The notes under the pieces: model-generated
What the model saw: only the letters and a program-made list of their open reading frames with translations
What the model was told of the DNA's origin: nothing
Database searches by the model: none
Translations under genes and position numbers: made by a program
NCBI GenBank assembly: GCA_964453645.1
Contig: CAYVRJ010000001.1
Location: 106,301 to 138,300 of the forward strand
DNA length: 32,000 nt
Direction of reading: 5' to 3'
Source of the DNA: an uncultured Clostridia bacterium
GTDB lineage: Bacteria; Bacillota; Clostridia; Christensenellales; JAWKQI01
Shown: positions 1,283 to 29,310 of the stretch, in pieces
Layout: every line of letters begins with the position of its first letter
How positions within the stretch are numbered: position 1 is the first letter of the stretch

Positions 1283-1308
1283 TATTATTCTGAAAGGAAC
1301 CAAAAGAC

Positions 1309-2448: not shown

Positions 2449-2460
2449 TGAGGTTTACAC

Positions 2461-3309: not shown

Positions 3310-3361
3310 GAAGAACAGGTTGGCGTGAAAGAGTTTCACGGCTAATGGAAGGGAGTTTTTT

Positions 3362-5786: not shown

Positions 5787-5788
5787 AG

Positions 5789-7222: not shown

Positions 7223-7224
7223 AC

Positions 7225-8634
7225 ATGAGCAAACAGGCAAAGACAATTTTTATACTGGGTGTGGTGCTGTTCGTGGCAGCCGTTGTCACCGTCATCGCAC
7301 TGACAATACCCGAAGTGAATGAACAAACCCAAGACCAACCTGTGCTGCTGGTGAATAAAACCATCAACGATGTGGCACGGGTGAATGTAACCAACAAGCT
7401 GTGCACCTATTCCGCCTGGCGGGAGGGCAACGGTTATACATTAGAGGACATTCCCCCCGAGAGCCTCAACATTGAATATTTAGGTATGCTGCTGGACGAG
7501 AGCAGCAAGATTGAATATGTGCGCGAAGTGGGCAGGGGAAACTTTGCCGACTACGGGTTAAACGACCCCGAGGCCACGGTGGACATTCAGTACACCGATG
7601 GGCAGGAAATGACACTGCTCTTAGGAGACCGGGAACAGTTGTCCGACGGACGGTATTTTGCGGTGAAAGGGGGAGAGGACGTCTATCTCATGGACAACAG
7701 CCGCTCCATTCGCTTCACCATGGACATTAAGAAATATATCGACTACGTGATTATTCCCCCAAGGGTGGAACCGTCGGTGATGGGTGCAATTTTAGATATT
7801 TCCTTTGAGGGTAAGGAATTTGAAAAACCCATCCGCATTCGTTCCATTGCCGGGGGCGACCCGGAGGTTGTGTCTCGTGCAGCCAGCTTTGGGGTTACCA
7901 CCCACATCATGGAAAGTCCCAACCTTCACGGGGTGGACTTAACCCAGGCAAACCAAATCTTTGGTTCCCTCACGGGTATGATCACCGATGGTGTCCTCGC
8001 ATACAATTGCAGCCAAGAGGAGCTTGCAAAGTATGGGTTAAACGACCCACGGCTCACCGTGCGCTACACCTACAAAAACGGCAAGGATGCAACCCCCGAG
8101 GAATTTCTCCTCAAAGTAGCAGACTATCAGGGCACCGAAGTGATGACCAAAAACGACGAGGGTATCGTCTATACAATATCCGAAGCACCCTTTACCAGCG
8201 CCAGTTATGAAAAATTAGTGGCAAAGCGGTTTTTAATGCCCATCATATTGGACGTTTCGGGAGTGGAAATTAAAACCCCCAATGAAACCTATCAATTTGA
8301 ACTGTTGGGTGAGCAGAGTAAGGATCTATCCGTTTTATTAAGTGGCAAACCGGTGGACACAGCACTGTTTCGCACGTTTTATAACTTGTTGGTATCCATT
8401 GACCACGACGGACGTTTGGTTCAAAATACAAAGACCAGTGGGGAACCCATCCTCACCATCACATATCGGTATAGAGATAAAACAAAGGGGGATGATACCA
8501 TGGAGTTTTACCCCGGCAGCTTGCGGCGCACCCTCGTTTCGGTGAACGGGGTGAGTGAGTTTGAAACCAACGAAAAGTTTCAAACAGAGATTTTAACAGA
8601 ATTAAACAAACTAATAAAGGAGACACAGCAATGA
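7225..8634 (+). CDS. DUF4340 domain-containing protein
   Basis: Single N-terminal TM followed by a repeated YGLNDP pattern typical of DUF4340; genomic position after GldF/GldG. The ATG at 7225 has an upstream GGAGGAG-type RBS. Confidence 0.82.
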   Translation: MSKQAKTIFILGVVLFVAAVVTVIALTIPEVNEQTQDQPVLLVNKTINDVARVNVTNKLCTYSAWREGNGYTLEDIPPESLNIEYLGMLLDESSKIEYVREVGRGNFADYGLNDPEATVDIQYTDGQEMTLLLGDREQLSDGRYFAVKGGEDVYLMDNSRSIRFTMDIKKYIDYVIIPPRVEPSVMGAILDISFEGKEFEKPIRIRSIAGGDPEVVSRAASFGVTTHIMESPNLHGVDLTQANQIFGSLTGMITDGVLAYNCSQEELAKYGLNDPRLTVRYTYKNGKDATPEEFLLKVADYQGTEVMTKNDEGIVYTISEAPFTSASYEKLVAKRFLMPIILDVSGVEIKTPNETYQFELLGEQSKDLSVLLSGKPVDTALFRTFYNLLVSIDHDGRLVQNTKTSGEPILTITYRYRDKTKGDDTMEFYPGSLRRTLVSVNGVSEFETNEKFQTEILTELNKLIKETQQ

Positions 8635-9374
8635 CAAAAGTGACAGCAAAGGACATCGCAAAGATGATCGACCATTCCCTCTTAAAACCCGAGATGACCA
8701 AACAGCAGGTGGAGGAGGGCTGCAAATTAGCAGCAAAATACGACTGCGCCACAGTGTGCGTGAAACCTTGCGACGTGGAACTGGCATACTCCATATTAAA
8801 AGACACCGATGTGCTCACCACCACGGTAATTGGTTTCCCCCACGGCTCCAATTTACCCGAAGTTAAGTTGCTTGAAGCGAAAATTGCTATGGATCAGGGC
8901 TGCAAGGAACTGGATTTTGTGCTCAACATCGGCAGGTTAAAGTCCGGCGACTACGATTTGGTAGGAGCAGACTTAAAGGCAGTGGTCGATGCTGCCCACG
9001 CCCGGAACGTGATCGTTAAAGTGATATTCGAAAACTTTTATTTAACAGATGAGGAGAAGGTGAAGGCTTGTGAAATTTGCACCCGCACGGGAGCAGACAT
9101 GACCAAAACCTCCACGGGGTATGCAGGCGGCGGTGCCACCATTCCCGATTTGCGGCTCATGCGTGCCAACACCCCCATGACCATGCAGGTAAAAGCGGCT
9201 GGCGGCGTGCGGACGCTGGATGCTGCGCTAAACATTCGTTCCATTGGCGTATCTCGGTTTGGCTGCACAACAACGGCAACGATTATGGAAGATGCATATG
9301 AGCGGGAAGCAAAGGGCACCCTCACCCTGCCAAATCCCGACAGCGTGAAAGAACTTTCGTCCACAGAGTATTGA
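8631..9374 (+). CDS. deoC: Deoxyribose-phosphate aldolase
   Basis: 247 aa; IDHSLLKPEMTKQQVEEGC, CVKPCDVELA, VIGFPHGSN, DFVLNIGRLKSGDY, VIVKVIFEN, DMTKTSTGYAGGGAT, VKAAGGVRTLD. Confidence 0.95.
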   Translation: MTKVTAKDIAKMIDHSLLKPEMTKQQVEEGCKLAAKYDCATVCVKPCDVELAYSILKDTDVLTTTVIGFPHGSNLPEVKLLEAKIAMDQGCKELDFVLNIGRLKSGDYDLVGADLKAVVDAAHARNVIVKVIFENFYLTDEEKVKACEICTRTGADMTKTSTGYAGGGATIPDLRLMRANTPMTMQVKAAGGVRTLDAALNIRSIGVSRFGCTTTATIMEDAYEREAKGTLTLPNPDSVKELSSTEY

Positions 9375-9387
9375 TTCAGCGTTGGTT

Positions 9388-10485
9388 ATGAAAAGTAAGC
9401 TACTCAGTGAAAAGAAACTATCTGCCGTCATCGGCTTTGATGGTTTTGTAGATGAAGTGGTTCACGTGGTGGACAAGCGAATTGATGCGGATAACTATAC
9501 CCGGGTGGAGACCCTTGCGGAGTATGGGACGCGCATTGCAAAGGCCTCGGGGCTTTCCTTTAACGTGGAGATTTTCCCCGTTGCCAAGAAATTGGGGGGC
9601 AATGGGCCGATCTTCGCCCTGGGGCTTAAAAAGTTTGGCATGGGCATCACCTACATCGGTGCCACGGGGCTTGCAAACACCAACAGCGTGTTTGCGGACT
9701 TAGCCCAGGGTTCCACAGTGATTGGGGTGACAGACCCTGCCCAAACAGATGCCATGGAGTTTTTGGACGGAAAGATCATCCGCTCCAAGCTCTCCACCCT
9801 CAATTCCCTCACATGGGAAAAGATTGTCAGTAAGCGGTCTGCTGGGGAATTAGCAGAACTGTTTGATGGTGCAGACCTTTTAAGCTTTAACAACTGGACG
9901 ATGATCACCCACATGAGTGACATTTGGTCGCATTTGTTAGAAGAAGTGTTTCCCCTAATGCGCAGCAGGGACAAGACGGTGTTCTTTGATTTGGCAGACC
10001 CTGAAAAGCGCAAACCCCAAGACATTCTCCACGCTCTTTCGCTGATTCAACAGTTTGAGAAGAGTGGCTTTTGCGTGGTGCTGGGGCTGAATAAAAAGGA
10101 AGCCTGTGAGATTTACGAGTTGATGACCCATGATAAGATTCTCGATTACGTTACTTTCGACCTTGAAAAGGTGTGTGTGAAGGTTTATGATCAGTTGGGA
10201 ATTCGCTGTCTGGTGGTTCACCCAACAGACCGTGCGGCTTGTGTGGTTGGCGGTGAATACTTTGAAGTGCAGGGGCCGTATTGCAAAAATCCGGTGTTAA
10301 CAACGGGTGCGGGGGATAACTTTAATGCTGGGTTTGTGCTGGGATATATGTCCCACTTAACCCCAACCGAGTGTTTGGAACTGGGTAACTTTTCATCGGG
10401 TTATTATGTGCGTTTTGCCAGAAGTGCCGATGTGTCCGAATTACTCTCCTTTATGGAGGACTTTAAACAAGGTAAAATCCAATAA
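9388..10485 (+). CDS. PfkB-family carbohydrate kinase
   Basis: C-terminal PfkB signature region VLTTGAGDNFNAGFVLGYM; N-terminal GFDGFVDEVVHVV. Start likely the ATG at 9388. Confidence 0.87.
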   Translation: MKSKLLSEKKLSAVIGFDGFVDEVVHVVDKRIDADNYTRVETLAEYGTRIAKASGLSFNVEIFPVAKKLGGNGPIFALGLKKFGMGITYIGATGLANTNSVFADLAQGSTVIGVTDPAQTDAMEFLDGKIIRSKLSTLNSLTWEKIVSKRSAGELAELFDGADLLSFNNWTMITHMSDIWSHLLEEVFPLMRSRDKTVFFDLADPEKRKPQDILHALSLIQQFEKSGFCVVLGLNKKEACEIYELMTHDKILDYVTFDLEKVCVKVYDQLGIRCLVVHPTDRAACVVGGEYFEVQGPYCKNPVLTTGAGDNFNAGFVLGYMSHLTPTECLELGNFSSGYYVRFARSADVSELLSFMEDFKQGKIQ

Positions 10486-10500
10486 AAAAATGTTGAAAGT

Positions 10501-11682
10501 TTAGGGCTGATAGATTTCTATCGGCTCTTTCTTTTTGCGGTTCATCACTAAAAAGATGGTTCCTCCAATGAGAGCGGGAATGCCGGATATCATCAGCATG
10601 CTGTTGATACCCATGGTTTCGGATAAAAATCCAAACAGCGGGTTTCCCACCATCTGGGAGATGCTGAGTGTGGCTTGGTAGATGAGGGCAGCCCCCGATA
10701 GGAACTTTACGTCCACGTGTTTGGCAATATAATAAACCACGCCGGGCACGAAGAGGGCAAAGGAAATGGCTTGCAGTGCAACAAACACCCACACGAGAAA
10801 TACGTTGGATGCCAAAGAGAGCGCAATGGAGCGAATGAAATAACCCACCATGCCAAAACCCAGCAGTTTGGATACGCCAAATTTATTCTTGAGTTTGGTG
10901 AACCCCAGCATCACCCAAAACTCTGCAAAGGCCATGATGAAATAGGCAATACCCACTTCCGACTGATTTCCCCCCAGATGTTGAATCAGCAGGGGGGTGA
11001 AGGTGGCCATGGAGACAAAAGTTAAATAGGACAAAAAGGCTGTGACTAAAAGGAGCACATATTTTTTGTTGCCAAAGAGATAGGATGCCGACTTGCGGAT
11101 GGTGATGTGCGTGGCATTTTCGTGCACTTGGGGGTTGGGGATTTTAAGAATCACGGTGAGGATGGTGAGGAACACCAAGATCATTGCATAAATCGCCAAG
11201 TGATTTCCAAAAGACGAAAACAACTGGCCCAGTACAATGGCAAAAACAGCGTATGTTAAAGAACCAATGCTGCGCACCCGGCCGTAGTCTAGCTTCACCT
11301 TTTGCTTTTGCAGCTTAGTGATCCAGGAATCGATAATACCCGTGAGAGACTGGGTGGTACCCAAAACAACCACCGAAAAACCCACAATAAAGGCGGGAGC
11401 TTCATAGAAGAAAAAGAGCAGGGGCAGCCCCGCAGTGCCCACCAGCAGCACAATGGCGATCATTTGTTTGATTTTGTTGAACTTATCCGACAAATATCCA
11501 AAGACCGGCTGACAGATAAAACAACTGATGGCTGTCCACATTAAGGCGATGCCAATGCTAAAATCCGAATATCCGAAACTCTTTAAAAATACCGTATAAT
11601 ATCCGCAAAAAATGAGTATCACAGTAAAATATCCGCCCATGAGGACGGAAAATCTGCTCGTCAATCCCTTTACTTCTTTCAA
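10501..11682 (-). CDS. MFS transporter
   Basis: 393 aa with about 12 hydrophobic segments; PVFGYLSDKFNKIKQ and DYGRVRSIGSLTYAVFA; TTG start preceded by AGGAGAGG. Confidence 0.87.
   Translation of the reverse strand: MKEVKGLTSRFSVLMGGYFTVILIFCGYYTVFLKSFGYSDFSIGIALMWTAISCFICQPVFGYLSDKFNKIKQMIAIVLLVGTAGLPLLFFFYEAPAFIVGFSVVVLGTTQSLTGIIDSWITKLQKQKVKLDYGRVRSIGSLTYAVFAIVLGQLFSSFGNHLAIYAMILVFLTILTVILKIPNPQVHENATHITIRKSASYLFGNKKYVLLLVTAFLSYLTFVSMATFTPLLIQHLGGNQSEVGIAYFIMAFAEFWVMLGFTKLKNKFGVSKLLGFGMVGYFIRSIALSLASNVFLVWVFVALQAISFALFVPGVVYYIAKHVDVKFLSGAALIYQATLSISQMVGNPLFGFLSETMGINSMLMISGIPALIGGTIFLVMNRKKKEPIEIYQP
10503..10537 (+). terminator. Rho-independent terminator for the + strand run
   Basis: AGGGCTGATAG-attt-CTATCGGCTCT (11 bp stem with two G-U pairs) followed by TTCTTTTT; lies inside the 3' end of the convergent MFS gene. 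Confidence 0.65.
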
Positions 11683-11784: not shown

Positions 11785-11813
11785 TTGATAATTCGACAGT
11801 TCAACAGTATAAT
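11785..11813 (+). promoter_or_regulatory. Sigma-A-type promoter for the radical SAM/nucleotide-sugar cassette
   Basis: TTGATA (11785-11790), 17 nt spacer, TATAAT (11808-11813), 36 nt upstream of the start codon. Confidence 0.78.
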
Positions 11814-11849
11814 ACAGGAATGGTTTATTAAAACAGAAGGGTTTCTGTG

Positions 11850-13757
11850 ATGAAAAATGTGTATTTAGCCCAGCCCAATTATCTCTATGGCAACAACGCT
11901 TACTTACCCTATTCGGCAGGAGCTATTGCTGCCTATGCCTTTGACGATCCCCAAGTGGCAGCGCACTATGCCTTGCCCCCCATTCTTTTTTTGCGCAGAG
12001 ATATTGCAAAGGTTGTGGAAGAACTGGACAACCCATGTGTGTTTGGGTTTTCAAATTATGTCTGGAATTTCGAGTACAACTTGTTGCTTGCAAGGGCTGT
12101 GAAAGCTGCTTATCCCGATTGTCTCATCCTCTTTGGAGGGCATCACATTCAAACCAATTCGGTGGAACTATTAAAAGACCACCGTTTTATCGATATACTC
12201 ATCTACGACGAGGGAGAAAAACCCTTTAGAGACATACTCAAGGCACTCCTAAACGGACAAGGGTTTGAAGACATTACAAACATCGCATACCGCAAAGACG
12301 GGTTGATTGTTGCAAACCAACTGGAGCGCTGGGAGGATACGGACTATCCCTCCCCCTACCTCACCGGGGTTTTTGACAACATCATCAGCGATACAAACGT
12401 TCACTTCACGGCAACTTTAGAGACCAACCGGGGGTGCCCGTTCTCCTGTGCCTACTGCGATTGGGGCATTTATAAATCCAAACTCAGAGCCTTTCCCATG
12501 GAGCGGATTGCAGAGGAAATCCAGTGGTTTTCAAAGAACCGAATCGAACTGGTCATGGGTGCGGATTCCAACTTCGGCATTTTGGAGAGAGATGTAGACA
12601 TTGCCAAAATGTTGATTAAAGCCAAGAAAGAGACGGGGTATCCCCAAAAGTTTCGGGTGTCCTACACCAAAAACAGCAACAAAACGGTATATGCCATCAA
12701 TGAGGCCTTAAACAACTCAGGTATGAGCAAGGGAGCAACGCTGTCCTTCCAAAGCTTAAGTGAAAGGGTGCTTCAAAATATCAACCGTAAGAACATGGAT
12801 ATGGGTATGTTTTCAGAGCTGCTCAAGCTCTACAATGCAAACAATATTCCCACCTACTCGGAAATTATCATGGGATTGCCGGGGGAGACCTATGCATCTT
12901 TTGTGCAGGGCATTGATACCCTGTTGGAAAATGGCCAGCACAACTCCATTAATATTTATAACTGTGAACTGCTGCCCAATTCCCTCATGGCCTCAAAGGA
13001 ATATATGCAAACCCATGCGATACAAACCATAAGAACGCCCCTAAACCAATACCACTGCGAACCCCAATCGGGGGATATCACCGAGTATTCCAACGTGGTG
13101 GTGAGCAACAGCACGATGACCATGGACGATTGGGTATTGTGTAACGTCTTTTCTGTGGTGGTCCAGTGTTTCCACTGTTTGGGGCTGTTGCAGTACATCG
13201 CAGTATTTGCCCGGCACAGGTACGGCGTACCCTACCACAAGTTTTACAGCCAGTTGCTCTCCTTTTTACCCGGATGCACAGGCATTGGTCTTATTTTCAA
13301 TAAAATTGTGAACCAAATAAAGGGCATCTCCTCGGGAAGCACTTGGGAGTATACAAATCCAAAGTTTGGTAACATCACTTGGCCCTTGGACGAGGGTGCT
13401 TTTTTGGAGTGTATGTGTCTCATGGACAGTTTTTATGAGGAACTCACCCCCTTCTTTGAGACGATGATACCCAATCGTGAGGAATTGCAGGAACTGATTC
13501 GCTATCAAAAGGCCTTGGTTAAGAAACCCTTTGATCGGGACTTCCGCTTGACGTGTGTTTACGACTTTAAGGATTATTTCGAAAAGGTGTATCTGGGGTC
13601 TGAAGTTGAACTTCAAAAAAAGTTGTGCACTTATGAAGTTTGTGTGGGAAAGACATACCACTCCTTTGCGTTATACGCAGTGGAAGTGGTGTGGTACGGC
13701 CGCAAGGGTGGAACGAATATATATCAAACAAATTATTTGCATGAAGGCCTTGCGTAA
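11850..13757 (+). CDS. B12-binding-domain-type radical SAM protein
   Basis: N-terminal domain with LILFGGHHIQTN and IYDEGEKPF, then the radical SAM CxxxCxxC motif in ETNRGCPFSCAYCDWG. GTG at 11847 is an alternative start. Confidence 0.85.
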   Translation: MKNVYLAQPNYLYGNNAYLPYSAGAIAAYAFDDPQVAAHYALPPILFLRRDIAKVVEELDNPCVFGFSNYVWNFEYNLLLARAVKAAYPDCLILFGGHHIQTNSVELLKDHRFIDILIYDEGEKPFRDILKALLNGQGFEDITNIAYRKDGLIVANQLERWEDTDYPSPYLTGVFDNIISDTNVHFTATLETNRGCPFSCAYCDWGIYKSKLRAFPMERIAEEIQWFSKNRIELVMGADSNFGILERDVDIAKMLIKAKKETGYPQKFRVSYTKNSNKTVYAINEALNNSGMSKGATLSFQSLSERVLQNINRKNMDMGMFSELLKLYNANNIPTYSEIIMGLPGETYASFVQGIDTLLENGQHNSINIYNCELLPNSLMASKEYMQTHAIQTIRTPLNQYHCEPQSGDITEYSNVVVSNSTMTMDDWVLCNVFSVVVQCFHCLGLLQYIAVFARHRYGVPYHKFYSQLLSFLPGCTGIGLIFNKIVNQIKGISSGSTWEYTNPKFGNITWPLDEGAFLECMCLMDSFYEELTPFFETMIPNREELQELIRYQKALVKKPFDRDFRLTCVYDFKDYFEKVYLGSEVELQKKLCTYEVCVGKTYHSFALYAVEVVWYGRKGGTNIYQTNYLHEGLA

Positions 13758-13766
13758 AGATTGAAA

Positions 13767-13804
13767 ACGATTTGTGCCGTATGTGAAACGGCGGAATGGA
13801 GTTT
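13767..13804 (+). repeat. Duplicated leader element, copy 1 (upstream of gmd)
   Basis: acgatttgtgccgtatgtgaaacggcggaatggagttt, 33/38 identical to 18357-18394. Confidence 0.7.
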
Positions 13805-13807
13805 ATT

Positions 13808-14815
13808 TTGAAAAAAGCACTGATTACAGGCATCACCGGGCAAGACGGTTCATATCTTGCCGAACTGTTGCTGAAAAAAAACTATGAGGTCCACGGCATT
13901 GTGAGGAGAGCCAGTGTGTTTAACACCGAGCGAATCGATCACATCTTAAAGGACATTCAGACGTACCACGGGGATCTCACCGATTCCTCCAACCTAAACC
14001 GCCTCATGGAAAAGATTGAGCCCGACGAAATTTATAACCTTGCGGCTCAGTCCCACGTGAAGGTGAGTTTTGAGGTGCCCGAGTACACCGCCGAGGTAGA
14101 CGCTGTGGGCACCCTAAAAATGCTGGACACATTGTCTGAACTGCGAACCCACACCCGGTTTTATCAAGCCTCCACCTCCGAATTGTTCGGTGGGTTTCCC
14201 GAAACGGCACCCCAGAGCGAAACAACCCCTTTCACTCCCCGCTCTCCCTATGCTGCCGCAAAACTCTATGCCTATTGGGTCACCGTGAATTTTCGCGAGG
14301 CCTATAATCTCTATGCCTGCAACGGCATATTGTTTAACCACGAATCTCCCCGCAGAGGCAAGACGTTTGTGACAAAAAAGATCACCATGGCGGTGGCCGA
14401 CATCGTTAGGGGCAAGCAGGAAAAGCTCACCCTGGGCAACATGGATGCAAAGCGGGACTGGGGTTATGCCAAGGACTACGTATACGCCATGTGGCTCATG
14501 TTACAACAGGAAAAACCCGACGACTACGTGATTGCAACGGGGGAAACCCACTCTGTGCGAGAGTTTGTGGAAGCTGCCTTTCGTTATGTGGACATCACCA
14601 TTGAGTGGCAGGGCAGCGGTGTGCATGAAGTGGGCAGAGATGCTAAGACGGGAAAGATTTTAGTGGACATAAACCCAAAATATTTTCGGCCAACCGAGGT
14701 GGACTGCCTGCTGGGCGATGCCACAAAAGCAAAGGAACAGTTGGGTTTTGTGCCCAAAACCTCCTTTGAAGAACTGGTGCACATCATGATGGAGTACGAC
14801 CTTCATGAGAGATGA
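13808..14815 (+). CDS. gmd: GDP-mannose 4,6-dehydratase
   Basis: [77 protein letters not shown]. Likely TTG start at 13808 with a GGAG RBS; the ATG at 13796 overlaps the Shine-Dalgarno. Confidence 0.95.
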
Positions 14816-15740
14816 AAAAATTTATTTGGCGGGGCACACCGGCTTGGTGGGAAGCGCCATATTTAAGGCCCTTAAGGACAGGGGATATACAAATATTCTC
14901 ACCGCTTCCCACAGGGAGCTGGATTTAACCAGGCAGGCGGACACAGAGGCTTTTTTCGAGCGGGAAAAGCCAACATACGTCATATTAGCTGCTGCAAAGG
15001 TGGGGGGCATTGGGGCGAATATGCAGAGTATGGCCGACTTTGGTTATATCAACGCCATGATCGGGGCAAACGTCATACACAGCGCCTACGCATACGGAGT
15101 AAAAAAACTCTTGTATTTGGGCAGTTCGTGTATATATCCAAGGCAGTGCCCCCAGCCCATGCGGGAGGACTGCCTCCTAACGGGTATTCCCGAACCCACC
15201 AACGAAGCCTATGCCCTCTCCAAAATATTGGGGCTTAAGCTTTGCGAGTACTACAACACCCAGTACAACTGCAACTTTATCAGTGCCATGCCCTGCAACA
15301 TATACGGTGAGGGGGACAATTTCGACGAAAAGACGTCCCACGTCATCCCTGCCCTCATGCAAAAGATGCACAACGCCCATGTTCGGGGGGAGGATAGCGT
15401 TCTCATTTGGGGCACGGGCAGAGCTAGACGGGAGTTTTTACACGTCTTTGACTTGGCTTTGGCCTGTATCTTTCTGCTGGAAAACTACGATGACAAACAG
15501 TTTGTCAACGTGGGTGCTGGGCATGACGTGACCATTGCCCAGTTGGCAGATATGATGCGCCAGGTGGTGGGCTTTCGGGGGGAAATCGTCTTCGATACCT
15601 CCAAACCCGACGGCATGATGAAAAAGTGTGTGGATACGTCTAAAATCAATGGCCTGGGGTGGAAGAGTGAGATCGATCTTATGAATGGCCTTAAGCAGAC
15701 GTACGCTTGGTTTTTAGAAAATATTGTGAGGTATACATGA
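14805..15740 (+). CDS. fcl: GDP-L-fucose synthase-like (GDP-4-keto-6-deoxymannose 3,5-epimerase/4-reductase), possibly a GDP-colitose-synthase role
   Basis: [71 protein letters not shown]; overlaps gmd by 11 nt. Confidence 0.87.
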
Positions 15741-16888
15741 AAAAATATCCGTTGGCGTCGGGGACGTGGGGACAAGAGGAACGGGAAGCAATCCTTCGGG
15801 TGATGGACAGGGACATGTTCACCATGGGTCAAGAAGTGTTAGAGTGCGAACAGGCCTTTGCTAAACAGTTTGGTGCAAACTATGCGGTCATGTGTAATTC
15901 GGGTTCGTCTGCAAATTTGTTGGCAGTGGGAGCTATGGTCTATTCGGGCAGATGGCAGCGGGGAGACGAAATCATCGTTCCCGCAATTGCATGGGCAACG
16001 ACGTACTATCCCCTCTATCAATACGGGCTGAAGCTTCGGTTTGTGGATATCGACAGGGAAACCCTGAACATCAGCATCCCCGCCTTAAAAGAGGCGATCA
16101 CCCCCAACACCAAGGGGCTGGTTGCAGTGAATCTCCTTGGCAACCCCAACGAGTTCAATGATATTGAACGTATTTGCAGGGATGGGGGGATCACCTACTT
16201 CGAGGACAACTGCGAGAGTATGGGTGCCAAATACAAGGGCAAATATGCGGGAACCTTTGGGCTTATGGGCACGTACAGCTCCTTTTTCTCCCACCACATC
16301 TCCACCATGGAGGGTGGGTTTATCACAACCGACGATGAACTACTCTACGACATGCTCAAGTGCCTGCGGGCACACGGCTGGACGAGGAATTTAAATAGTG
16401 ACAGCGTGTTGTTTGAGAAGGGGGATGAATTTTACGAACTGTTTCACTTTATCCTTCCGGGTTACAACTTTCGCCCCATGGAGATGCAAGGGGCCATCGG
16501 GAAAGAACAGCTCAAGCGTTTGGAAGGGTTTGTAACCCTGCGGCGGCAAAACGCACTGTATTTTAAAGAGAAGTTTAGGGACTTACCCCTCACCGTGCAA
16601 CAAGAGACGGGGGAAAGCTCCTATTTTGGACTGGCATTTCTTTTAAACAAACCCGGCAAACGCAATGCACTGGCAAAAAAGCTAATGGACAGCGGCATTG
16701 AGTGCAGGCCGGTGATGACGGGTAATTTCACCAAAAATCCCGTGATTCAATATATGGAGTTTAATATTTCGGGCACCCTGGACAATGCGGATTATGTCCA
16801 TGAAAACGGCATATTCCTTGGCAACCACAGCTACGACTTAAGGCAACACATCGACTATGCCTACGACGTAATTTGCGGAGAACTGTGA
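15737..16888 (+). CDS. DegT/DnrJ/EryC1-family PLP enzyme with Lys-to-His substitution; ColD-like GDP-4-keto-6-deoxy-D-mannose 3-dehydratase candidate
   Basis: DegT-fold motifs (GSSANLLAV, FEDNCESMGAKYKGK). The active-site segment is SSFFSHHISTMEGG where aminotransferases have a catalytic Lys; RAHGWTRNL follows. ATGA overlap with fcl. Confidence 0.8.
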   Translation: MKKYPLASGTWGQEEREAILRVMDRDMFTMGQEVLECEQAFAKQFGANYAVMCNSGSSANLLAVGAMVYSGRWQRGDEIIVPAIAWATTYYPLYQYGLKLRFVDIDRETLNISIPALKEAITPNTKGLVAVNLLGNPNEFNDIERICRDGGITYFEDNCESMGAKYKGKYAGTFGLMGTYSSFFSHHISTMEGGFITTDDELLYDMLKCLRAHGWTRNLNSDSVLFEKGDEFYELFHFILPGYNFRPMEMQGAIGKEQLKRLEGFVTLRRQNALYFKEKFRDLPLTVQQETGESSYFGLAFLLNKPGKRNALAKKLMDSGIECRPVMTGNFTKNPVIQYMEFNISGTLDNADYVHENGIFLGNHSYDLRQHIDYAYDVICGEL

Positions 16889-16891
16889 AGA

Positions 16892-18337
16892 ATGGATTAT
16901 AATATGAGCAGTTTTGTATTTGGCACCGGTGGGATCCGGGAAGTGATGGGGCAAGGCGAAGGGAAGATGAACGACGATGTGATTATTTTGGCATCTCTGG
17001 CGCTTGCCCGGTTTCTCTTTGAAAAGTTTGAGAACCCCAAAGTTTTGGTGGCCTACGACAGCAGAATCAATTCCAAGGAGTGGGCGAACCTCACGGCAAA
17101 GGTGTTGGTCTCCAAGGGGGTTGAGGCCTTTGTTTTTGATCGGCTGTGCCCCACCCCGGTGCTCAGCTTTGCTATTTTACATCTGAATTTATCGGCAGGG
17201 GTGGTGATCACCGCCAGCCACAACACAAAGGAATACAACGGTTATAAGGTGTACGGGCACACCGGGGTGCAGTGCGTGCCCCAAGAGACCAAACAAATAA
17301 CAAAACACGGCCAGCAGTGTAGCGTCTTTGATTATGTTGAGCCAGAGGCAGACATTCAAACGGTTGGGGAGGACGTGCTGCGTGCCTTTTATGATGCCGT
17401 GCTCTGTGAATCTGTCTTTGAAGAAACTGCAACTGCAAGTGAACTAAACGTTGTGTTCACCCCCCTCCACGGAACGGGTGGCCTGCCCGTTCTCACAGTG
17501 CTTAGAGAAGCGGGATTTCGTGATGTGTTGGTGGTGGAAGAACAGTTTGAACCCGATGGCAATTTCCCCACCGTGGATTCCCCCAACCCCGAGGAACCCT
17601 CCGCTCTAAAAATGGCCATTGACTTGGCGAATCAGACGGGTGCGGATATAGTCATTGGCACAGACCCGGATTGCGACAGGGTGGGGGTTGCGGTGCGCCA
17701 CATGGGTAAGTACGTGCAGCTCAGCGGCAACGAGGCAGGGGCACTGCTCACCGGGTATCTCCTTTTCAAAAAGAGCGGCAACACCTTGGTGAAAACAGTT
17801 GTGTCGGGAGAGCTGGGCGGGCAAATTGCCCGGCAAAACGGACTAAACGTAATCAATACTCCCACTGGGTTTAAATACATCGGCGAACAGATGGAAAGCT
17901 TAGGCGAAGACTTCTTTTTTGCCTACGAGGAGAGCTTTGGTTATTTGGGCGGGCGTTATGCCCGGGACAAATGCGGGGTGGGCGCATGTCTGCTCCTGTG
18001 CCAATGTGCGGCACACCATAAACAACGGGGAAAAACCTTAGTGGATGCCCTAAACGAACTCAAAGCAACCTATGGCCACTACCAAGACTTTGGCCAGAGT
18101 ATACGGCTTGACCCCGGTCAACAGGAGAAAGTGATTGAACGGTTAAAAAGCTTGGATGGAATTTTGGAGGTGGAGGAGGCAGGTAGTTTCTTAAAACTGC
18201 ACTTTCACAACGGATGGATTGCCGTTCGGCCTTCGGGTACCGAACCAAAACTCAAGCTGTATTACAGCGCCAAGGGAGAGAGCCATGAAGCGGCTCAAGT
18301 AGCACTGGATGAACTAAAGAAAAGAGTAGGGGCTTAA
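16892..18337 (+). CDS. Phosphohexomutase (phosphomannomutase/phosphoglucomutase family)
   Basis: ITASHNTKEYNGYKVY (phosphoserine loop), GTDPDCDRVGVAV (metal loop), EESFGYLGG (sugar loop), RPSGTEPKLKLYY. The context fits a GDP-mannose supply role. Confidence 0.88.
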   Translation: MDYNMSSFVFGTGGIREVMGQGEGKMNDDVIILASLALARFLFEKFENPKVLVAYDSRINSKEWANLTAKVLVSKGVEAFVFDRLCPTPVLSFAILHLNLSAGVVITASHNTKEYNGYKVYGHTGVQCVPQETKQITKHGQQCSVFDYVEPEADIQTVGEDVLRAFYDAVLCESVFEETATASELNVVFTPLHGTGGLPVLTVLREAGFRDVLVVEEQFEPDGNFPTVDSPNPEEPSALKMAIDLANQTGADIVIGTDPDCDRVGVAVRHMGKYVQLSGNEAGALLTGYLLFKKSGNTLVKTVVSGELGGQIARQNGLNVINTPTGFKYIGEQMESLGEDFFFAYEESFGYLGGRYARDKCGVGACLLLCQCAAHHKQRGKTLVDALNELKATYGHYQDFGQSIRLDPGQQEKVIERLKSLDGILEVEEAGSFLKLHFHNGWIAVRPSGTEPKLKLYYSAKGESHEAAQVALDELKKRVGA

Positions 18338-18356
18338 CGTGAGAGATTTTTTACGG

Positions 18357-18394
18357 ACGATTTGTGACGTAAGCCAGACGGCGGAATGGAGTTT
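18357..18394 (+). repeat. Duplicated leader element, copy 2 (upstream of manC)
   Basis: acgatttgtgacgtaagccagacggcggaatggagttt, 33/38 identical to 13767-13804. Confidence 0.7.
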
Positions 18395-18397
18395 TTT

Positions 18398-19732
18398 ATG
18401 AACATAGTATTATTATCGGGGGGGTCGGGCAAGCGGCTGTGGCCTTTGTCCAACGAAACTCGCTCCAAACAGTTTCTTAAATTATTGAGCACAGACAGTG
18501 GGGAAAAGCAGTCCATGATTCAACGGGTGTTTTCCCAGATCAAAGAGGCAGGCCTTGATAAAAGCCTCACGGTGACCACCAGCAGCACCCAGGAGAGTGC
18601 CATCGTTGGCCAAATCGGGGACAGTGCCAACATCGTCATCGAGCCGGAGAGGCGGGACACTTTTCCCGCAATCGCACTGGCGTGTTGTTATTTAAAGTTT
18701 AACAAATGCTTGTCCGACGACGAAGTGGTGATCGTTATGCCCGTGGATCCCTATGTGGACATCGATTATTTTCATAAGTTCCAAGAATTAAAGGACGGTG
18801 TAAACACCAATCAGTACGACATTGTGCTCATGGGTGTGACACCCACCTACCCTTCGGAGAAGTATGGATACATTCAGCCAAAGGCGGGGGGAAGTTTGCG
18901 GGAAGTGGATAGATTCAAAGAAAAACCCACCGTAGCCCAGGCCGAAGAGTTAATTGCTGGGGGTGCACTGTGGAACTGTGGGGTGTTTGCCTTTAAGCTT
19001 GGTTATATGATGAACGTCCTTGCAAAGTATATGGATGTCTCGTCCTATGAAGAGGTGTATGAAAACTATCACCTGCTCAACAAAAACAGTATGGACTACG
19101 AAGTGGTGGAAAAGGCGAAGCGGATTGGCCTCATAACCTACGACGGCAGATGGATGGACATGGGCACGTGGAACACCTTAGCCGAAGAGATGGGTGCAAA
19201 CACCATCGGCAGGGTCACTTTATCCCAAAACTCTAAGAACACCCACGTGATCAACGAGCTGAGCATTCCCGTGGTGGTCATCGGTGCTAAGGATATGATC
19301 GTTGCTGCAAACTACGACGGCATTCTGGTGAGCGACAAGGAGCAGAGTTCCTATTTGAAAGAGTATTTGAGCGATGTAAACAATCGCCCCATGTTTGAGG
19401 AGAGAGCGTGGGGCAGATATAAGGTGTTGGAGCTGTTTTCTTTGGGAAACGGCAACAAATCCTTAACAAAACATTTGTTTGTCAAACAGGGTAAGAAGCT
19501 GAGTTATCAAATGCACAGGCTGAGGCAAGAAATTTGGACGATTATTTCGGGCACAGGTATTTTCACCATGGACGGAATGAACAGTTCGGTGAAGGCGGGA
19601 GACGTGTTCACCATTGACATCGGCAAAAAACACACCATTCAAGCGCTCACAGACTTGGAATTGATCGAAGTGCAACTGGGTAAAGAGTTAGAGGAAAATG
19701 ATATCATTCGCTTTGAGGAGGAATCGATTTGA
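18398..19732 (+). CDS. manC: Mannose-1-phosphate guanylyltransferase / mannose-6-phosphate isomerase (type II PMI-GMP)
   Basis: MNIVLLSGGSGKRLWPLSNETRSKQFLKLL (GMP signature), FKEKPTV, and a C-terminal cupin region ERAWGRYKVLELF... LSYQMHRLRQEIWTIISGTG. Start moved to the ATG at 18398. Confidence 0.94.
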   Translation: MNIVLLSGGSGKRLWPLSNETRSKQFLKLLSTDSGEKQSMIQRVFSQIKEAGLDKSLTVTTSSTQESAIVGQIGDSANIVIEPERRDTFPAIALACCYLKFNKCLSDDEVVIVMPVDPYVDIDYFHKFQELKDGVNTNQYDIVLMGVTPTYPSEKYGYIQPKAGGSLREVDRFKEKPTVAQAEELIAGGALWNCGVFAFKLGYMMNVLAKYMDVSSYEEVYENYHLLNKNSMDYEVVEKAKRIGLITYDGRWMDMGTWNTLAEEMGANTIGRVTLSQNSKNTHVINELSIPVVVIGAKDMIVAANYDGILVSDKEQSSYLKEYLSDVNNRPMFEERAWGRYKVLELFSLGNGNKSLTKHLFVKQGKKLSYQMHRLRQEIWTIISGTGIFTMDGMNSSVKAGDVFTIDIGKKHTIQALTDLELIEVQLGKELEENDIIRFEEESI

Positions 19733-20607
19733 AAGTAGTATTGATGGACGGCGGGCTGGGCAACCAAATGTTTCAATATATATTTGCACGGTTTGTGGAA
19801 CTGTATTCGGGCGAACCCGTTTTTATCGACGATGCATTCTTTTTCTACGCAGACTTACACAACGGGTATGAAGTGGAAAAGGTGTTTCCCAACGCAAAAC
19901 CAAGGCTGCTCAGCAAAGAGTTTAGCCCCGGAACGTGGGATCAAATTGTGCAGTATGTAAAGAACGAGGCAGCGTTTCCCGAATTTATGAACAACGGTGG
20001 CAACAATTTCTTTGTTGTTTTTGAAAGTGGCGACATTCGTTATACTGGTAATATGGTGAAAGTGCCAGCCAACCAGTTTACCCCCGATATCGCCATCACC
20101 CAGGGTAATGTCTATTACTTTGGCTATTGGATCAACAAGAGGTGGTTGTCAAGTATTGCAGATTCAATAATGAGGGAGTTGGAGTTTCCGCCCATCCCCG
20201 GTGCACACAACCAAGACTATACAAGGTTGATTGAGAAAACCAATTCCGTTGCAGTACACATCCGCAGGGGAGATTTTGTGGATATAAAGTGGACGTTAGA
20301 GGACTCCTTTTATTTTAACTCCATAAAGGAAATCGCCCATAGGGTGGACAATCCAACATTTTTCATCTTTTCGGACGATCTCAACTGGTGCAGGGAAAAC
20401 AGCGAAGGATTGGGTTTTGAATTTGCAAAGGGAAATCTGGTGTATGTGGAGGGTAACATGGACAAACAAAACAACTATGTGGACATGCAGCTCATGTCTA
20501 TGTGCAAGCACATGGTCATCGCCAACAGTTCCTTTAGTTATTTGGCAGCCCTGCTCAACAGAAATGAAAACAAACTCATTGCCAATCCCACAGCACGGGA
20601 GCTTTAA
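19729..20607 (+). CDS. Glycosyltransferase family 11 (alpha-1,2-fucosyltransferase-like, possible colitosyltransferase)
   Basis: GGLGNQMFQYIFARFVEL N-terminus and the HIRRGDFV motif characteristic of GT11; TTG start overlapping the manC stop (TTGA). Confidence 0.9.
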   Translation: MKVVLMDGGLGNQMFQYIFARFVELYSGEPVFIDDAFFFYADLHNGYEVEKVFPNAKPRLLSKEFSPGTWDQIVQYVKNEAAFPEFMNNGGNNFFVVFESGDIRYTGNMVKVPANQFTPDIAITQGNVYYFGYWINKRWLSSIADSIMRELEFPPIPGAHNQDYTRLIEKTNSVAVHIRRGDFVDIKWTLEDSFYFNSIKEIAHRVDNPTFFIFSDDLNWCRENSEGLGFEFAKGNLVYVEGNMDKQNNYVDMQLMSMCKHMVIANSSFSYLAALLNRNENKLIANPTAREL

Positions 20608-20630
20608 ATATATTTTGTAAGGAGTGTCAC

Positions 20631-21983
20631 ATGGAAAAGAAAAAGAGAAAAGGACTAATTTTGATCATACTGCTGGGCCTTGTTGTGGTGATTGCAGGGT
20701 ATTTTTTAATCAACAGCTACATCAAGAGCCTGCCGGTATTTCAGTATGTAAACGGAACAAATACACAAATTGAATATCCCGACGCAAACTTTGCTGTGAT
20801 CAGCGATCTGCACATGTACGACCCTTCCCTGGGCACCGAAGGTGAGGCCTTTGATGAAGTGATGAACAGTGACAGAAAATTGCTGCTCAACAGCGAAGAG
20901 CTGCTGGATCTGGCGGTTGAACGCATTTTGGAATCCAAGGTGGATTTTGTGCTCATCCCCGGGGATATCACCAAGGACGGCGAGGTGGTGAACCATCAAA
21001 TTGCCGCAAACAAGCTGCAAGTCTTGGAGGACAACGGCATTCAGGTCTATGTGGTGCCCGGCAACCACGACATCAACAACCCGGACAGCAAGTCCTTTGC
21101 GGGCAGTAGTGCAACAAACGTGCCCAGCATCACCCCCGAAGACTTTAAACGGGTGTACGGAGGGTTTGGCTACGACAGCGCACTGTTTAAAGACGAAAAC
21201 ACTTTGAGTTACGCAACAGAGCCAATAGAGGGGCTATACATCTTAGGTTTGGACGGTTGCCAATACAATGTGGAAGGCCAGCGGAACCACAGCATCACCG
21301 GGGCGAAATATAACCAATCCACCATCGACTGGATCACCCAAACCGTTGCATATGCCCAGCAAAACGGCAAGGCCGTCATCGTCCTCTCCCACCACGGCAT
21401 TGTGGAGCACTGGAAGGGGCAGAGTTCCCTTCACCCCGAATATTTAACTCACGACTACCGTTATGTGGGTGAATTGTTGGCATCCTACAACGTGCGGTTG
21501 GCTTTTACAGGCCATTACCACGCACAGGACATTGTGCGGGGGGATTTTAACCAAGGTTTTCTCTACGACATTGAAACGGGTTCCCTGGTGACAGCCCCGT
21601 GCCCCGTGCGGTACGTTTCCATTGAAAACGGTGCTGCCACTGTGCGGACGGAAACGCTGGTGGATCAGCTGCACCCAGGCACAGACTTTGAAAAAAATGC
21701 AACGGATTTTGTGAAAAAGACAGTGGTGTTGGAGGCGTTTGCCACCCTTAAGAAATACTTGGTGTCCGACGAAGATGCCAACTACATTGCAAATCTGGTG
21801 GGGGATGCCTTTGTTGCCCACTACAGCGGAAATGAAGATCCAAGCCAGCGCATTATGGTGGATCAAAGTAAACTAAACTTGTGGGGCCAAATAGTCTATG
21901 CAACCCAGGGTTATGCCTTGGATGGCCTGTGGAACGACTTGCCCCCGCAGGACAGGGAGGCAGTGCTGCCGCTCAATCAATAA
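20631..21983 (+). CDS. Metallophosphoesterase (calcineurin-like), membrane-anchored or exported
   Basis: N-terminal hydrophobic segment; motifs AVISDLHMYD, VLIPGDITKDGE, VPGNHDIN, VLSHHG, FTGHYHAQD; AAGGAG RBS. Confidence 0.9.
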   Translation: MEKKKRKGLILIILLGLVVVIAGYFLINSYIKSLPVFQYVNGTNTQIEYPDANFAVISDLHMYDPSLGTEGEAFDEVMNSDRKLLLNSEELLDLAVERILESKVDFVLIPGDITKDGEVVNHQIAANKLQVLEDNGIQVYVVPGNHDINNPDSKSFAGSSATNVPSITPEDFKRVYGGFGYDSALFKDENTLSYATEPIEGLYILGLDGCQYNVEGQRNHSITGAKYNQSTIDWITQTVAYAQQNGKAVIVLSHHGIVEHWKGQSSLHPEYLTHDYRYVGELLASYNVRLAFTGHYHAQDIVRGDFNQGFLYDIETGSLVTAPCPVRYVSIENGAATVRTETLVDQLHPGTDFEKNATDFVKKTVVLEAFATLKKYLVSDEDANYIANLVGDAFVAHYSGNEDPSQRIMVDQSKLNLWGQIVYATQGYALDGLWNDLPPQDREAVLPLNQ

Positions 21984-21998
21984 AGGAATAAACATACA

Positions 21999-22035
21999 GT
22001 CGGCAGGTTTTTAGCCTTGCCGACTTATTTGTTTA
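21999..22035 (+). terminator. Rho-independent terminator after the metallophosphoesterase
   Basis: GTCGGCAGG-tttttag-CCTTGCCGAC stem (one bulge) followed by ttatttgttt. Confidence 0.6.
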
Positions 22036-22079
22036 TAATACATTCATAATAGATTTCCATTATTTTTTTATTTGCATGA

Positions 22080-22108
22080 TTGACTTTTTTACAATAAAAT
22101 CATACAAT
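22080..22108 (+). promoter_or_regulatory. Sigma-A-type promoter for the HD-GYP gene
   Basis: TTGACT (22080-22085), 17 nt spacer, TACAAT (22103-22108). Confidence 0.65.
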
Positions 22109-22171
22109 ATTATTGACGTTTTTCACCAGAAAGGAATGAGCTTAAAAGGAATGGATAAGGAGAATCAAATC

Positions 22172-23248
22172 GTGCACTTACGACCGATTTCTATTGAATA
22201 TTTAAAAGCAGGTATGCAGGTTCCCGACGATGTATACAATCACACGGGTAAATTGCTTTTGATTCCCAAGGGTTCATTGCTGACAGATACCATGTTGCTG
22301 CGGTTAAAGCGCCACAACGATGAGAATAAGAACATATGCGTTTCACCCATGCTGCACCGGGATTTATTGCAAAGTGATCTGCCCGAAAAGTTTGAACAAT
22401 CCTATATCGAGGACAGCATCGGTTATACCGAAACCAAGGAGCAAACCCAAGAGCTGTTCAGCGATGTGGAACACGGCAGCAGTGTGTCAAAGCAACAGGC
22501 GGAGCAGGTGTTTTTTGGCCTGTCCGAAAAATTAGCAACGGTGGATCCTTCCATCATATTTCAATGCGTAAACGGCAAAAACGATATCGACGAATACTTA
22601 TATAGGCACAGTGCCAACGTTGCACTCATCAACGGGTTGATCGGCAAGTGGCTGAATCTGCCCCAAATGGACATCGACATGCTGGTTATGGCGGGATTAC
22701 TCCACGATATCGGCAAAGCGAAGATTCCCCCGGCCATCCTCCACGCACCGCGAAAGCTCACCCCCAAGGAGTTTGAAATTATGAAACTCCACTCGGTGTA
22801 TTCTTTCGATTTGGTTTCGGAACAGAAGTTTAACAGTGCCATCCTCACGGCTGTGCGCCACCACCACGAAAAGATGAACGGTTCGGGTTACCCCGATCAC
22901 TTAAGTGCAGAGGAGATTTCCCTGTATGCCCGGATCACCGCCGTATCCGATGTGTACGACGCCATGGTTTCCAAGCGGTGTTATAAGGAAGCACACAGCC
23001 CCTTTGCGATTCTTGCTCAAATGGCCAAGCAGCGTCTGTCCGAGCTGGATATGCGCATTGTGGGTATATTTACCGACCTCATGCCCTATCAGCTTGTGGG
23101 TAAATCGGTGCTGATGTCCGACGGTTCAGTGGGCACAATCAAACACATTATGAACAACAAACCCGAATTCCCCTTGGTGGAGATCAACGGCGTGGTCGTT
23201 GCCACCAACAACAACCTGTACTGCTCGCGCATGATCTTTGACGAATAG
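22172..23248 (+). CDS. HD-GYP domain protein (putative c-di-GMP phosphodiesterase)
   Basis: HDIGKAKIPPAIL and HHHEKMNGSGYPDHLSAEEISLYARITAVSDVYDAM. The ORF track opens at 22076, upstream of the predicted promoter; GTG 22172 has an AAGGAG RBS with a 9 nt spacer (ATG 22136 and 22151 are alternatives). Confidence 0.87.
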   Translation: MHLRPISIEYLKAGMQVPDDVYNHTGKLLLIPKGSLLTDTMLLRLKRHNDENKNICVSPMLHRDLLQSDLPEKFEQSYIEDSIGYTETKEQTQELFSDVEHGSSVSKQQAEQVFFGLSEKLATVDPSIIFQCVNGKNDIDEYLYRHSANVALINGLIGKWLNLPQMDIDMLVMAGLLHDIGKAKIPPAILHAPRKLTPKEFEIMKLHSVYSFDLVSEQKFNSAILTAVRHHHEKMNGSGYPDHLSAEEISLYARITAVSDVYDAMVSKRCYKEAHSPFAILAQMAKQRLSELDMRIVGIFTDLMPYQLVGKSVLMSDGSVGTIKHIMNNKPEFPLVEINGVVVATNNNLYCSRMIFDE

Positions 23249-27080: not shown

Positions 27081-27249
27081 TTTCTACACCCTTTCATATA
27101 CAGTTTGTTTATATATACTTGGATGCTTTTTAAATTATGCAATGAAAATTTTTTGCCAAAAACTTCTTTGCAACAAAAAATACAAGGCTGCACAAAATAA
27201 ATCGAGGAAATCTATAATATAAATAGGATAGAATAAATAAGGAGAGCTG

Positions 27250-28481: not shown

Positions 28482-28485
28482 TGTT

Positions 28486-29298: not shown

Positions 29299-29310
29299 AA
29301 ATATACCCCC

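Follow-up and report, generated by a model that had tools for sequence, protein, structure and literature searches.

Organization of the operon

The 32-kb stretch of clostridial DNA analysed here, which will be referred to as the window, contains a single tight operon of eight genes on the + strand that extends, from promoter to terminator, over positions 11785-22025. Its genes encode enzymes for the synthesis of a deoxyhexose activated with guanosine diphosphate (GDP), a glycosyltransferase (GT) of family GT11, a radical S-adenosylmethionine (radical-SAM) protein and a metallophosphoesterase, and, as will be argued, it probably directs the synthesis and transfer of L-colitose. The features of the operon are the following:

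11785..11813, + strand: sigma-70-type promoter TTGATA-17-TATAAT, with 11 of 12 consensus positions
11847/11850..13757, + strand: cobalamin-dependent (class B) radical-SAM protein, TokK/ThnK/CysS-like, putative C-methyltransferase (PF04055, 50 bits; PF02310)
13796..14815, + strand: gmd, GDP-mannose 4,6-dehydratase (TIGR01472, 554 bits against a cutoff of 415)
14805..15740, + strand: Fcl-like short-chain dehydrogenase/reductase (SDR), predicted epimerase/reductase; candidate GDP-L-colitose synthase (ColC role), possibly also Fcl (NF047922 and synteny)
15737..16888, + strand: colD, predicted GDP-4-keto-6-deoxy-D-mannose 3-dehydratase, dependent on pyridoxamine 5'-phosphate (PMP) (homology to Escherichia coli ColD)
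16892..18337, + strand: phosphohexomutase, putative manB role (all four PGM_PMM domains)
18386..19732, + strand: manC, mannose-1-phosphate guanylyltransferase with a C-terminal phosphomannose isomerase (PMI)/cupin domain (NTP_transferase, MannoseP_isomer and Cupin_2 domains)
19729..20607, + strand: GT11 glycosyltransferase, alpha-1,2-fucosyl/colitosyl-transferase family (PF01531, 89 bits against a cutoff of 24)
20631..21983, + strand: membrane-anchored Lmo2642-like metallophosphoesterase, last gene of the operon (PF00149, 60 bits)
21998..22025, + strand: intrinsic terminator that closes the operon (stem of 10 bp, 6 of them GC, followed by a T-rich tail)

The intergenic distances, from the first to the eighth gene, are 38, -11, -4, 3, 48, -4 and 23 bp. 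The promoter lies in a divergent intergenic region of 165 bp, 34 nt 5' of the first gene, and is followed by a GAAGGG ribosome-binding site 5' of the ATG at 11850; a match to 11 of the 12 consensus positions occurs only here on both strands of the window, and Markov shuffles lead to an expectation of 0.52 such sites per window. The only strong terminator is found 3' of the eighth gene. The original prediction placed seven genes (radical-SAM, gmd, fcl-like, DegT-family, phosphohexomutase, manC and GT11) behind one near-consensus promoter, and both the promoter and all of these genes were recovered in that place and orientation. Nevertheless, it ended the unit at position 20607, which is too early, since the phosphoesterase gene that it left out begins 23 bp after the GT11 gene and precedes the terminator. 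The GC content of the operon (0.44-0.52) resembles that of the window (0.49), therefore there is no sign of a recent transfer.

The DegT-family protein is an orthologue of ColD

The fourth gene opens as a reading frame at 15707, but its likeliest start is the ATG at 15737, which is also the start annotated in L001, the public contig of identical sequence. Its product aligns end-to-end with E. coli ColD (2gms), with 473 bits (E 6e-141) and about 57% identity. ColD is distinguished from the aminotransferases and from E1 by a catalytic histidine in place of lysine and by the absence of an iron-sulphur cluster (PMC8987622). In the window protein this histidine is conserved: the segment SSFFSHHISTMEGG is aligned with SSFYSHHIATMEGG of E. 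coli ColD, with the SHH motif at the position of His188, and the structures of the H188N and H188K variants of ColD show N or K exactly at the first H of the aligned motif. In the region where E1 contains RDCYCAPGCDNTCKKR, the window protein follows ColD, with two gaps of one residue, and has no cysteine. Judged by these features, the protein is a true ColD orthologue, for which 3-dehydratase activity is predicted.

Two other assignments were considered and rejected. Perosamine synthase or an ordinary aminotransferase is contradicted by the presence of histidine instead of lysine and by the score obtained with the same query, 122 bits for perosamine synthase versus 473 for ColD. E1/RfbH is likewise contradicted: E1 scored 150 bits, RfbH, the top NCBIfam match, reached 227 bits against a cutoff of 423, and the cysteine-rich iron-sulphur insert is absent. 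In the original prediction this gene was described as a ColD-like enzyme dependent on pyridoxal 5'-phosphate (PLP); the first part of this description is borne out, whereas the second needs correction, ColD being a PMP-using dehydratase with a catalytic histidine and no ordinary PLP aminotransferase.

Homologues with 55-58% identity are spread over many phyla, with examples in E. coli, Citrobacter, Aliarcobacter, Campylobacter, Thermosipho, Marinitoga, Vampirovibrio and a metagenome-assembled genome (MAG) of Peptostreptococcaceae; apart from the identical copy of the source genome, no homologue exceeds 58%. The identity with ColD of the Peptostreptococcaceae MAG (loci L087/L088) and of Thermosipho (L112) is 55-56%. 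So far, the ColD proteins that have been characterised come only from Gram-negative bacteria (PMC8987622).

A proposed route to GDP-L-colitose and its transfer

The ColD orthology, the catalytic histidine and the absence of the E1 insert make GDP-L-colitose the likeliest product, and we hold with moderate confidence that the operon makes this nucleotide sugar de novo and that the GT11 enzyme transfers the sugar onto a glycan. In the proposed route the PMI domain of ManC would convert fructose-6-phosphate to mannose-6-phosphate, ManB would produce mannose-1-phosphate, and ManC would form GDP-mannose, from which Gmd would generate GDP-4-keto-6-deoxymannose. ColD, with PMP and its catalytic histidine, would then remove the C3 hydroxyl, and the Fcl-like SDR would carry out the C5 epimerisation and C4 reduction that yield GDP-L-colitose. 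Should the SDR also accept the substrate of ColD, GDP-L-fucose could appear as a side product; it is possible that the enzyme combines the Fcl and ColC activities in this way. The GT11 enzyme would put the 6-deoxy sugar on its acceptor, probably in alpha-1,2 linkage, as a single terminal glycosylation of a backbone whose genes would lie outside the window. The TokK-like protein, in turn, would most likely methylate, once or more, an unactivated carbon of either the deoxyhexose or the acceptor.

The assignments within this route differ in firmness. The phosphohexomutase reached no equivalog cutoff in NCBIfam, therefore its manB role is proposed from the context, and ManC scored 235 bits on TIGR01479, under the cutoff. 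The SDR obtained 443 bits on the Fcl equivalog model NF047922, below its cutoff of 500, while E. coli Fcl obtained 553, the ColD-adjacent SDR of L087 497, and ColC from E. coli O55 305. Cys109 and His179 are conserved in five aligned SDR sequences, in the motifs GSSCIYP and SHVIP. The SDR of Thermosipho (L112:7058-7999) has an asparagine at the catalytic Cys109 (SSANIYP versus SSCIYP), whereas the SDRs of the window, of L087 and E. coli ColC keep the cysteine; the Thermosipho enzyme may no longer need a double epimerisation.

The GT11 protein contains the family motifs GGLGNQMFQY, HIRRGD and NSSFS, aligned with those of the GT11 from E. coli O55. The identity with this protein (wbgN position, L083) is 28%, and with the GT11 that follows colD in L087 it is 32%, while the GT11 proteins found next to homologues of the radical-SAM gene share 44-46% with it (L090, at 44%, and L091). 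No solved structure that matches this protein by sequence was found. The characterised GT11 WbgN has GDP-colitose as its natural donor and tolerates GDP-fucose (PMC12723683). An attempt to assign the donor from the similarity to the GT11 proteins of E. coli O55 and L087 was uninformative at 28-32% identity, and, together with the isolated position of the closest homologue described below, this means that donor and acceptor are not readable from the sequence. The original prediction went as far as to propose a cell-wall, flagellar, S-layer or spore target and a glycan similar to the blood group H antigen; these suggestions are pure inference.

The radical-SAM protein and its family

The original prediction listed the first gene without recognising that its product is the most unusual component of the operon. 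Besides the radical-SAM domain, it has a B12-binding domain (PF02310) that scored 32.9 bits against a cutoff of 32.1. Among solved structures the best match was TokK (7kdx), which aligned with residues 11-483 at 315 bits; CysS came next with 143 bits. The diagnostic residues of these enzymes can be recognised in the window protein: the SxYxW motif located beneath the corrin (S-N-Y-V-W, aligned with S72-x-Y74-x-W76 of TokK), the CX3CX2C-x-W motif (CPFSCAYCDW versus CPYSCSFCDW) and the D-x-N at the GGE position (GADSNFG versus CDANFG). The residues of the TokK/ThnK/CysS motifs are invariant across an alignment of 21 sequences of the family. On this basis the protein is a class B radical-SAM enzyme of the TokK/ThnK/CysS type, with methyl transfer to an sp3 carbon as its predicted reaction. 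The C-terminal domain of TokK is its substrate-binding part, and about 150 C-terminal residues of the window protein extend beyond the alignment with TokK. TokK and CysS are described as cobalamin-dependent radical-SAM methylases that carry out repeated methylation of unactivated sp3 carbons (PMC9204698; PMC12846815).

The family to which this protein belongs is unnamed and of uniform length (approx. 640 residues); its members are numerous in MAGs of Oscillospiraceae, Acutalibacteraceae and other Clostridia, and a few come from Patescibacteria. Over the 79 genome loci compared, the genes frequently stand in tandem, two to six paralogues together (MAGs of Acutalibacteraceae and Oscillospiraceae), with six copies in each of L010, L013, L030 and L032. 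The most recurrent neighbours in these loci are a small AglJ-like GT2 (45 loci) and an unannotated polytopic protein of approx. 412 residues (34 loci), followed by an SDR plus cupin pair (approx. 21-23), GDP-heptose genes of the HddC/GmhB-like and GHMP-kinase (HddA) types (approx. 20), and an Fkp-like fucose pyrophosphorylase/kinase (approx. 18-21).

When 236 members were clustered, the window protein was grouped with exactly three others, those of L002, L093 and L090. The first of these loci has the order gmd-fcl-manC-rSAM (rSAM being the radical-SAM gene) and lacks ColD, the second has gmd-GT2-fcl-DegT-manC-rSAM, and in the third the radical-SAM gene is accompanied by a GT2 of 546 residues and a GT11. 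In L091, moreover, a GT2, an SDR, a GT11, a radical-SAM protein and an Fkp-like protein are encoded together. This subclade is therefore repeatedly linked to the supply of GDP-6-deoxyhexoses and to this GT11 subfamily, and not specifically to 3-deoxygenation. Regarding the two closest homologues of the window protein, the contig of L110 ends 88 bp past the gene, and L111 shows the generic context of the family, with no GDP-mannose genes.

Several other details of these loci were noted. The DegT protein of L093 (7409-8635) has a histidine at the catalytic lysine site and an E1-like cysteine-rich insert (CTCERC...VC), and is just 31% identical to ColD. The genes downstream in the same locus (L093:15641-20148) resemble the O-methyl-phosphoramidate set of Campylobacter, and include PRK05849 (943 bits), a protein similar to gamma-glutamyl-CDP-amidate hydrolase, an NTP transferase and a methyltransferase. 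A flavoprotein (NAD_binding_8/amine-oxidase-like) that is absent from the window is encoded beside members of the family in L003:9913-11157, L093:2398-3762 and L111:10087-11286; the one from L003 is weakly similar, over its full length, to UDP-galactopyranose mutase, a hint that the sugars of the loci that carry it may adopt furanose forms.

Weighing the proposal against its alternatives

The observations that weigh against the proposed route are brought together here, each with the explanation that it favours. With respect to the radical-SAM protein, co-occurrence with gmd, fcl, colD or GT11 was not found as a family-wide trait in the 79 loci, where these genes are rare neighbours, and the gene of L002, in a locus without ColD, indicates that the protein is not tied to the 3-deoxy step. 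On the KedN5 family model (NF033712) it scored 268 bits against a cutoff of 700, with profile positions 16-404 of 624 aligned, and class B enzymes are reported also to perform chemistry other than methylation (PMC9204698; PMC13331322). The methylation of a sugar by this protein is a plausible but tentative idea, which we hold with rather low confidence; the more specific version, in which it C-methylates GDP-L-colitose, GDP-L-fucose or the transferred residue to give an undescribed branched or chain-extended 3,6-dideoxyhexose, is rather unlikely.

It could also be that the protein is unrelated to the sugar pathway, either because it is merely co-transcribed or because its substrate is a lipid, a protein or a cofactor, in which case the rest of the operon would be an ordinary colitose cassette. 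The known colitose and fucose pathways need no radical-SAM enzyme (PMC8987622), the majority of the family members do not adjoin gmd, fcl or colD, and the substrate of the protein is not readable from its sequence. However, the gene is the first behind the sole promoter and is separated by only 38 bp, with no terminator, from gmd; its closest subclade adjoins genes for GDP-mannose-derived sugars or GT11 in three independent metagenomic loci, and the members of the wider family are almost always found among genes for nucleotide sugars, GT2 enzymes and membrane proteins. From these results we regard a function unconnected with the sugar as unlikely.

A second alternative is that the operon serves essentially for the synthesis of GDP-L-fucose and for alpha-1,2-fucosylation, with a normal Fcl, a GT11 fucosyltransferase and a ColD product that is minor or used differently. 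One argument in its favour comes from the SDR, whose score on the Fcl model was given above and which shares 49% of its residues with E. coli Fcl but only 38-39% with ColC of E. coli O55; furthermore, no residue that distinguishes the ColC function from that of Fcl was found in the aligned SDRs. The closest homologues of the GT11 (50-53% identity, from clostridial metagenomes) are called alpha-1,2-fucosyltransferases where they are named at all, and the closest one with a known context (L092, 53%) is surrounded by housekeeping genes and has no genes of sugar metabolism near it. The related locus L002 combines gmd, fcl, manC and the radical-SAM gene in the absence of ColD, and Fkp-like genes for the salvage of GDP-fucose are present in many loci of the family.

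Nevertheless, the relationship of the SDR with Fcl loses weight when other ColD loci are considered. An Fcl-like SDR is located directly 5' of colD in the three reference ColD loci, and gmd directly precedes the SDR in L087/L088 and L112. The ColD-adjacent SDRs of the Peptostreptococcaceae MAG (L087) and of Thermosipho (L112) are 52-53% identical to that of the window and 47-53% identical to E. coli Fcl, that is, they are equally Fcl-like in two other phyla, so this resemblance is no argument against a ColC role; it is E. coli ColC that behaves as the outlier relative to every other SDR compared. A separation of ColC from Fcl by model score, identity matrix and catalytic residues was attempted and gave no separable ColC clade; as far as sequences go, ColC is not a separable family. 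The ColC role that the original prediction implies for the fcl-like gene is suggested by its context next to colD, and finds no backing in a specific relationship with E. coli ColC. We infer that the SDR acts as ColC from the synteny gmd-SDR-colD over three phyla and because the product of ColD would otherwise be a dead end. The colD gene itself is intact, codes for a protein with the catalytic histidine and sits mid-operon in translational coupling, overlapping the gene upstream by 4 bp and ending 3 bp before the next. All this makes an operon that is essentially for fucose quite improbable.

The last objection to the synthesis of a colitose-bearing surface glycan is that no acceptor glycan is visible: none of the open reading frames of at least 100 residues in the window codes for a flippase, a polymerase, a priming transferase or a further glycosyltransferase, an absence that had been correctly pointed out for all but the priming transferase in the original prediction. 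These reading frames do not compose a capsule or O-antigen-type locus, be it Wzx/Wzy- or ABC-dependent; an ABC-2-type transporter with GldG-like and DUF4340 partners (4213-8634, transporter gene 4213-5786) constitutes a separate gene block. It might be thought that the GT11 modifies no surface polymer but a small, soluble compound of the cytoplasm, for instance an imported or exported galactoside moved by a transporter of the major facilitator superfamily (MFS) that is encoded divergently:

10501..11682, - strand: divergent MFS transporter, LacY/SET-like (MFS_1, 102 bits; LacY_symp, 32 bits)

This gene, with weak similarity to LacY and sugar-efflux proteins, shares the intergenic region of the operon and has a promoter-like site of its own (11740-11712, TTGAAA-17-TATAGT with TG), but the scores of its product on the LacY and SET models are far under the cutoffs, it was found beside homologues of the radical-SAM or GT11 genes in none of the loci checked, and the related loci hold the membrane-associated GT2 enzymes and polytopic proteins typical of surface glycan work, therefore a soluble acceptor is very improbable.

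The phosphoesterase and the genes that flank the operon

The product of the eighth gene matched Lmo2642 (PDB 2xmo) with 160 bits over the catalytic domain, and its N-terminus has a hydrophobic helix after the sequence KKKRK; owing to this anchor, the enzyme is predicted to be extracytoplasmic. Lmo2642 of Listeria monocytogenes, which is of similar length, is a cyclic-nucleotide phosphodiesterase according to the work of Kim et al. 2011, as cited in a later paper (PMC4320098), and nothing ties it to glycan synthesis. The gene that follows the operon (22076-23248) codes for an HD-GYP-type (HD_5) protein. An anti-phage role for the phosphoesterase and the HD protein was considered and discarded, given that only weak generic domain matches speak for it. 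In L092 (7734-10813), a PAS-GGDEF gene is located 30 bp 5' of the GT11 gene, on the same strand; the presence of genes for c-di-GMP turnover beside the GT11 operon of the window and beside the GT11 gene of L092 may be a coincidence. The nearest GT11 (L092) and the nearest radical-SAM protein (L110), both 53% identical to those of the window, come from the same sample, SRR29713737, although from different contigs. Since this GT11 gene has no sugar genes around it, the gene order of the window operon may be lost even in the closest relative.

The upstream block of the window (14-10485) contains genes for a URO-D-like protein, a GFO/IDH/MocA oxidoreductase, two xylose-isomerase-like TIM barrels, the ABC-2 transporter with its GldG-like (ABC_transp_aux/DUF7088) and DUF4340 partners, a DeoC/LacD-family aldolase and a prokaryotic ketohexokinase (PF25270). 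Together these genes resemble an uncharacterised cluster for sugar catabolism or export, for which no link to the colitose operon was seen. Downstream (23506-31935) there are genes for a SpoVD-like penicillin-binding protein with a MecA_N domain, SipL with a LysM domain, YtxC and Maf, as well as rnfBAEGD on the - strand. Rnf and sporulation genes, already mentioned in the original prediction, are thus indeed present; SipL, YtxC and the rnf operon (28486-31935) place the DNA, together with the taxonomy of the homologues, in spore-forming Clostridia. Scans of the window with Rfam and for tRNAs gave no match, and all the window proteins that were looked up in a collection of 15 billion proteins formed singleton clusters.

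Comparison with known systems

The enzyme set of the window is the same as that of E. coli O55/O111 (Gmd, ColD/WbdK, ColC/WbdJ, ManB, ManC and WbgN; compared locus L083), in which a GT11 is also present. The host of that system is a Gram-negative bacterium with lipopolysaccharide, while that of the window is a spore-forming Clostridium; besides, the window operon has no adjacent wzx, wzy, wzz or further glycosyltransferase genes, and it additionally encodes a radical-SAM protein and a phosphoesterase. Closer in gene order are the Peptostreptococcaceae MAG (L087/L088) and Thermosipho sp. 1070 (L112), where gmd, the Fcl-like SDR and colD succeed each other as in the window; in L087, a GT11 gene directly follows colD, which recalls the pairing with GT11 seen here. 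Nonetheless, these modules are embedded in conventional Wzx/Wzy-type loci with many glycosyltransferases, and they lack manB and manC in the module as well as the B12-dependent radical-SAM gene. The original prediction implied that the combination of a colitose cassette and GT11 is exceptional for a Firmicute. The combination is real, but the module of L087, in an ordinary Wzx/Wzy-type locus of another Firmicute, shows that neither the colitose genes in this group nor their pairing with GT11 is unprecedented at the sequence level. In the literature searched, no report of colitose in Gram-positive or clostridial glycans was found, nor one of a B12-dependent radical-SAM enzyme acting on a GDP-sugar.

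The relatives of the radical-SAM protein come from a different setting. TokK, ThnK and CysS act on carbapenem or cystobactamid precursors and belong to secondary-metabolite clusters, in contrast with the nucleotide-sugar operon that contains the window gene. A functional precedent for the C-methylation of carbohydrates is provided by GenK, GenD1, Fms7 and MoeK5, class B radical-SAM C-methylases that modify the sugar moieties of antibiotics (PMC9204698); however, their substrates are aminoglycoside or moenomycin intermediates and not GDP-sugars or cell-surface glycans, and no sequence relationship to the window protein is implied. In summary, the pathway is known chemistry and the radical-SAM protein is the newer element. 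What is distinctive in the window is a self-contained operon with one transferase, its location among housekeeping and sporulation genes, and a gene for a TokK-type radical methylase in first position.

Implications

Colitose is known from the O-antigens of a small number of Gram-negative pathogens, and human lectins and antibodies are directed against rare L-deoxy sugars. If the operon is functional as proposed, it would extend an immunologically distinctive rare sugar to the Gram-positive anaerobes of the gut, a group in which most surface glycans have yet to be described. If the methylase turns out to be unrelated to the sugar, an ordinary though compact member of a known pathway would remain. 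Of greater importance is the pairing of the radical-SAM gene with genes for GDP-deoxyhexose synthesis and GT11, since it is a recurrent association from which the function of a large, so far uncharacterised family of radical-SAM proteins can be tested. To our knowledge, the radical C-methylation of sugars has hitherto been known only from antibiotic pathways, and this pairing could bring to light primary glycans of the cell surface whose sugars are C-methylated by radical enzymes. Were the C-methylation to hold true, the family of approx. 640 residues would represent a widespread system for glycan C-methylation in the gut Clostridia.

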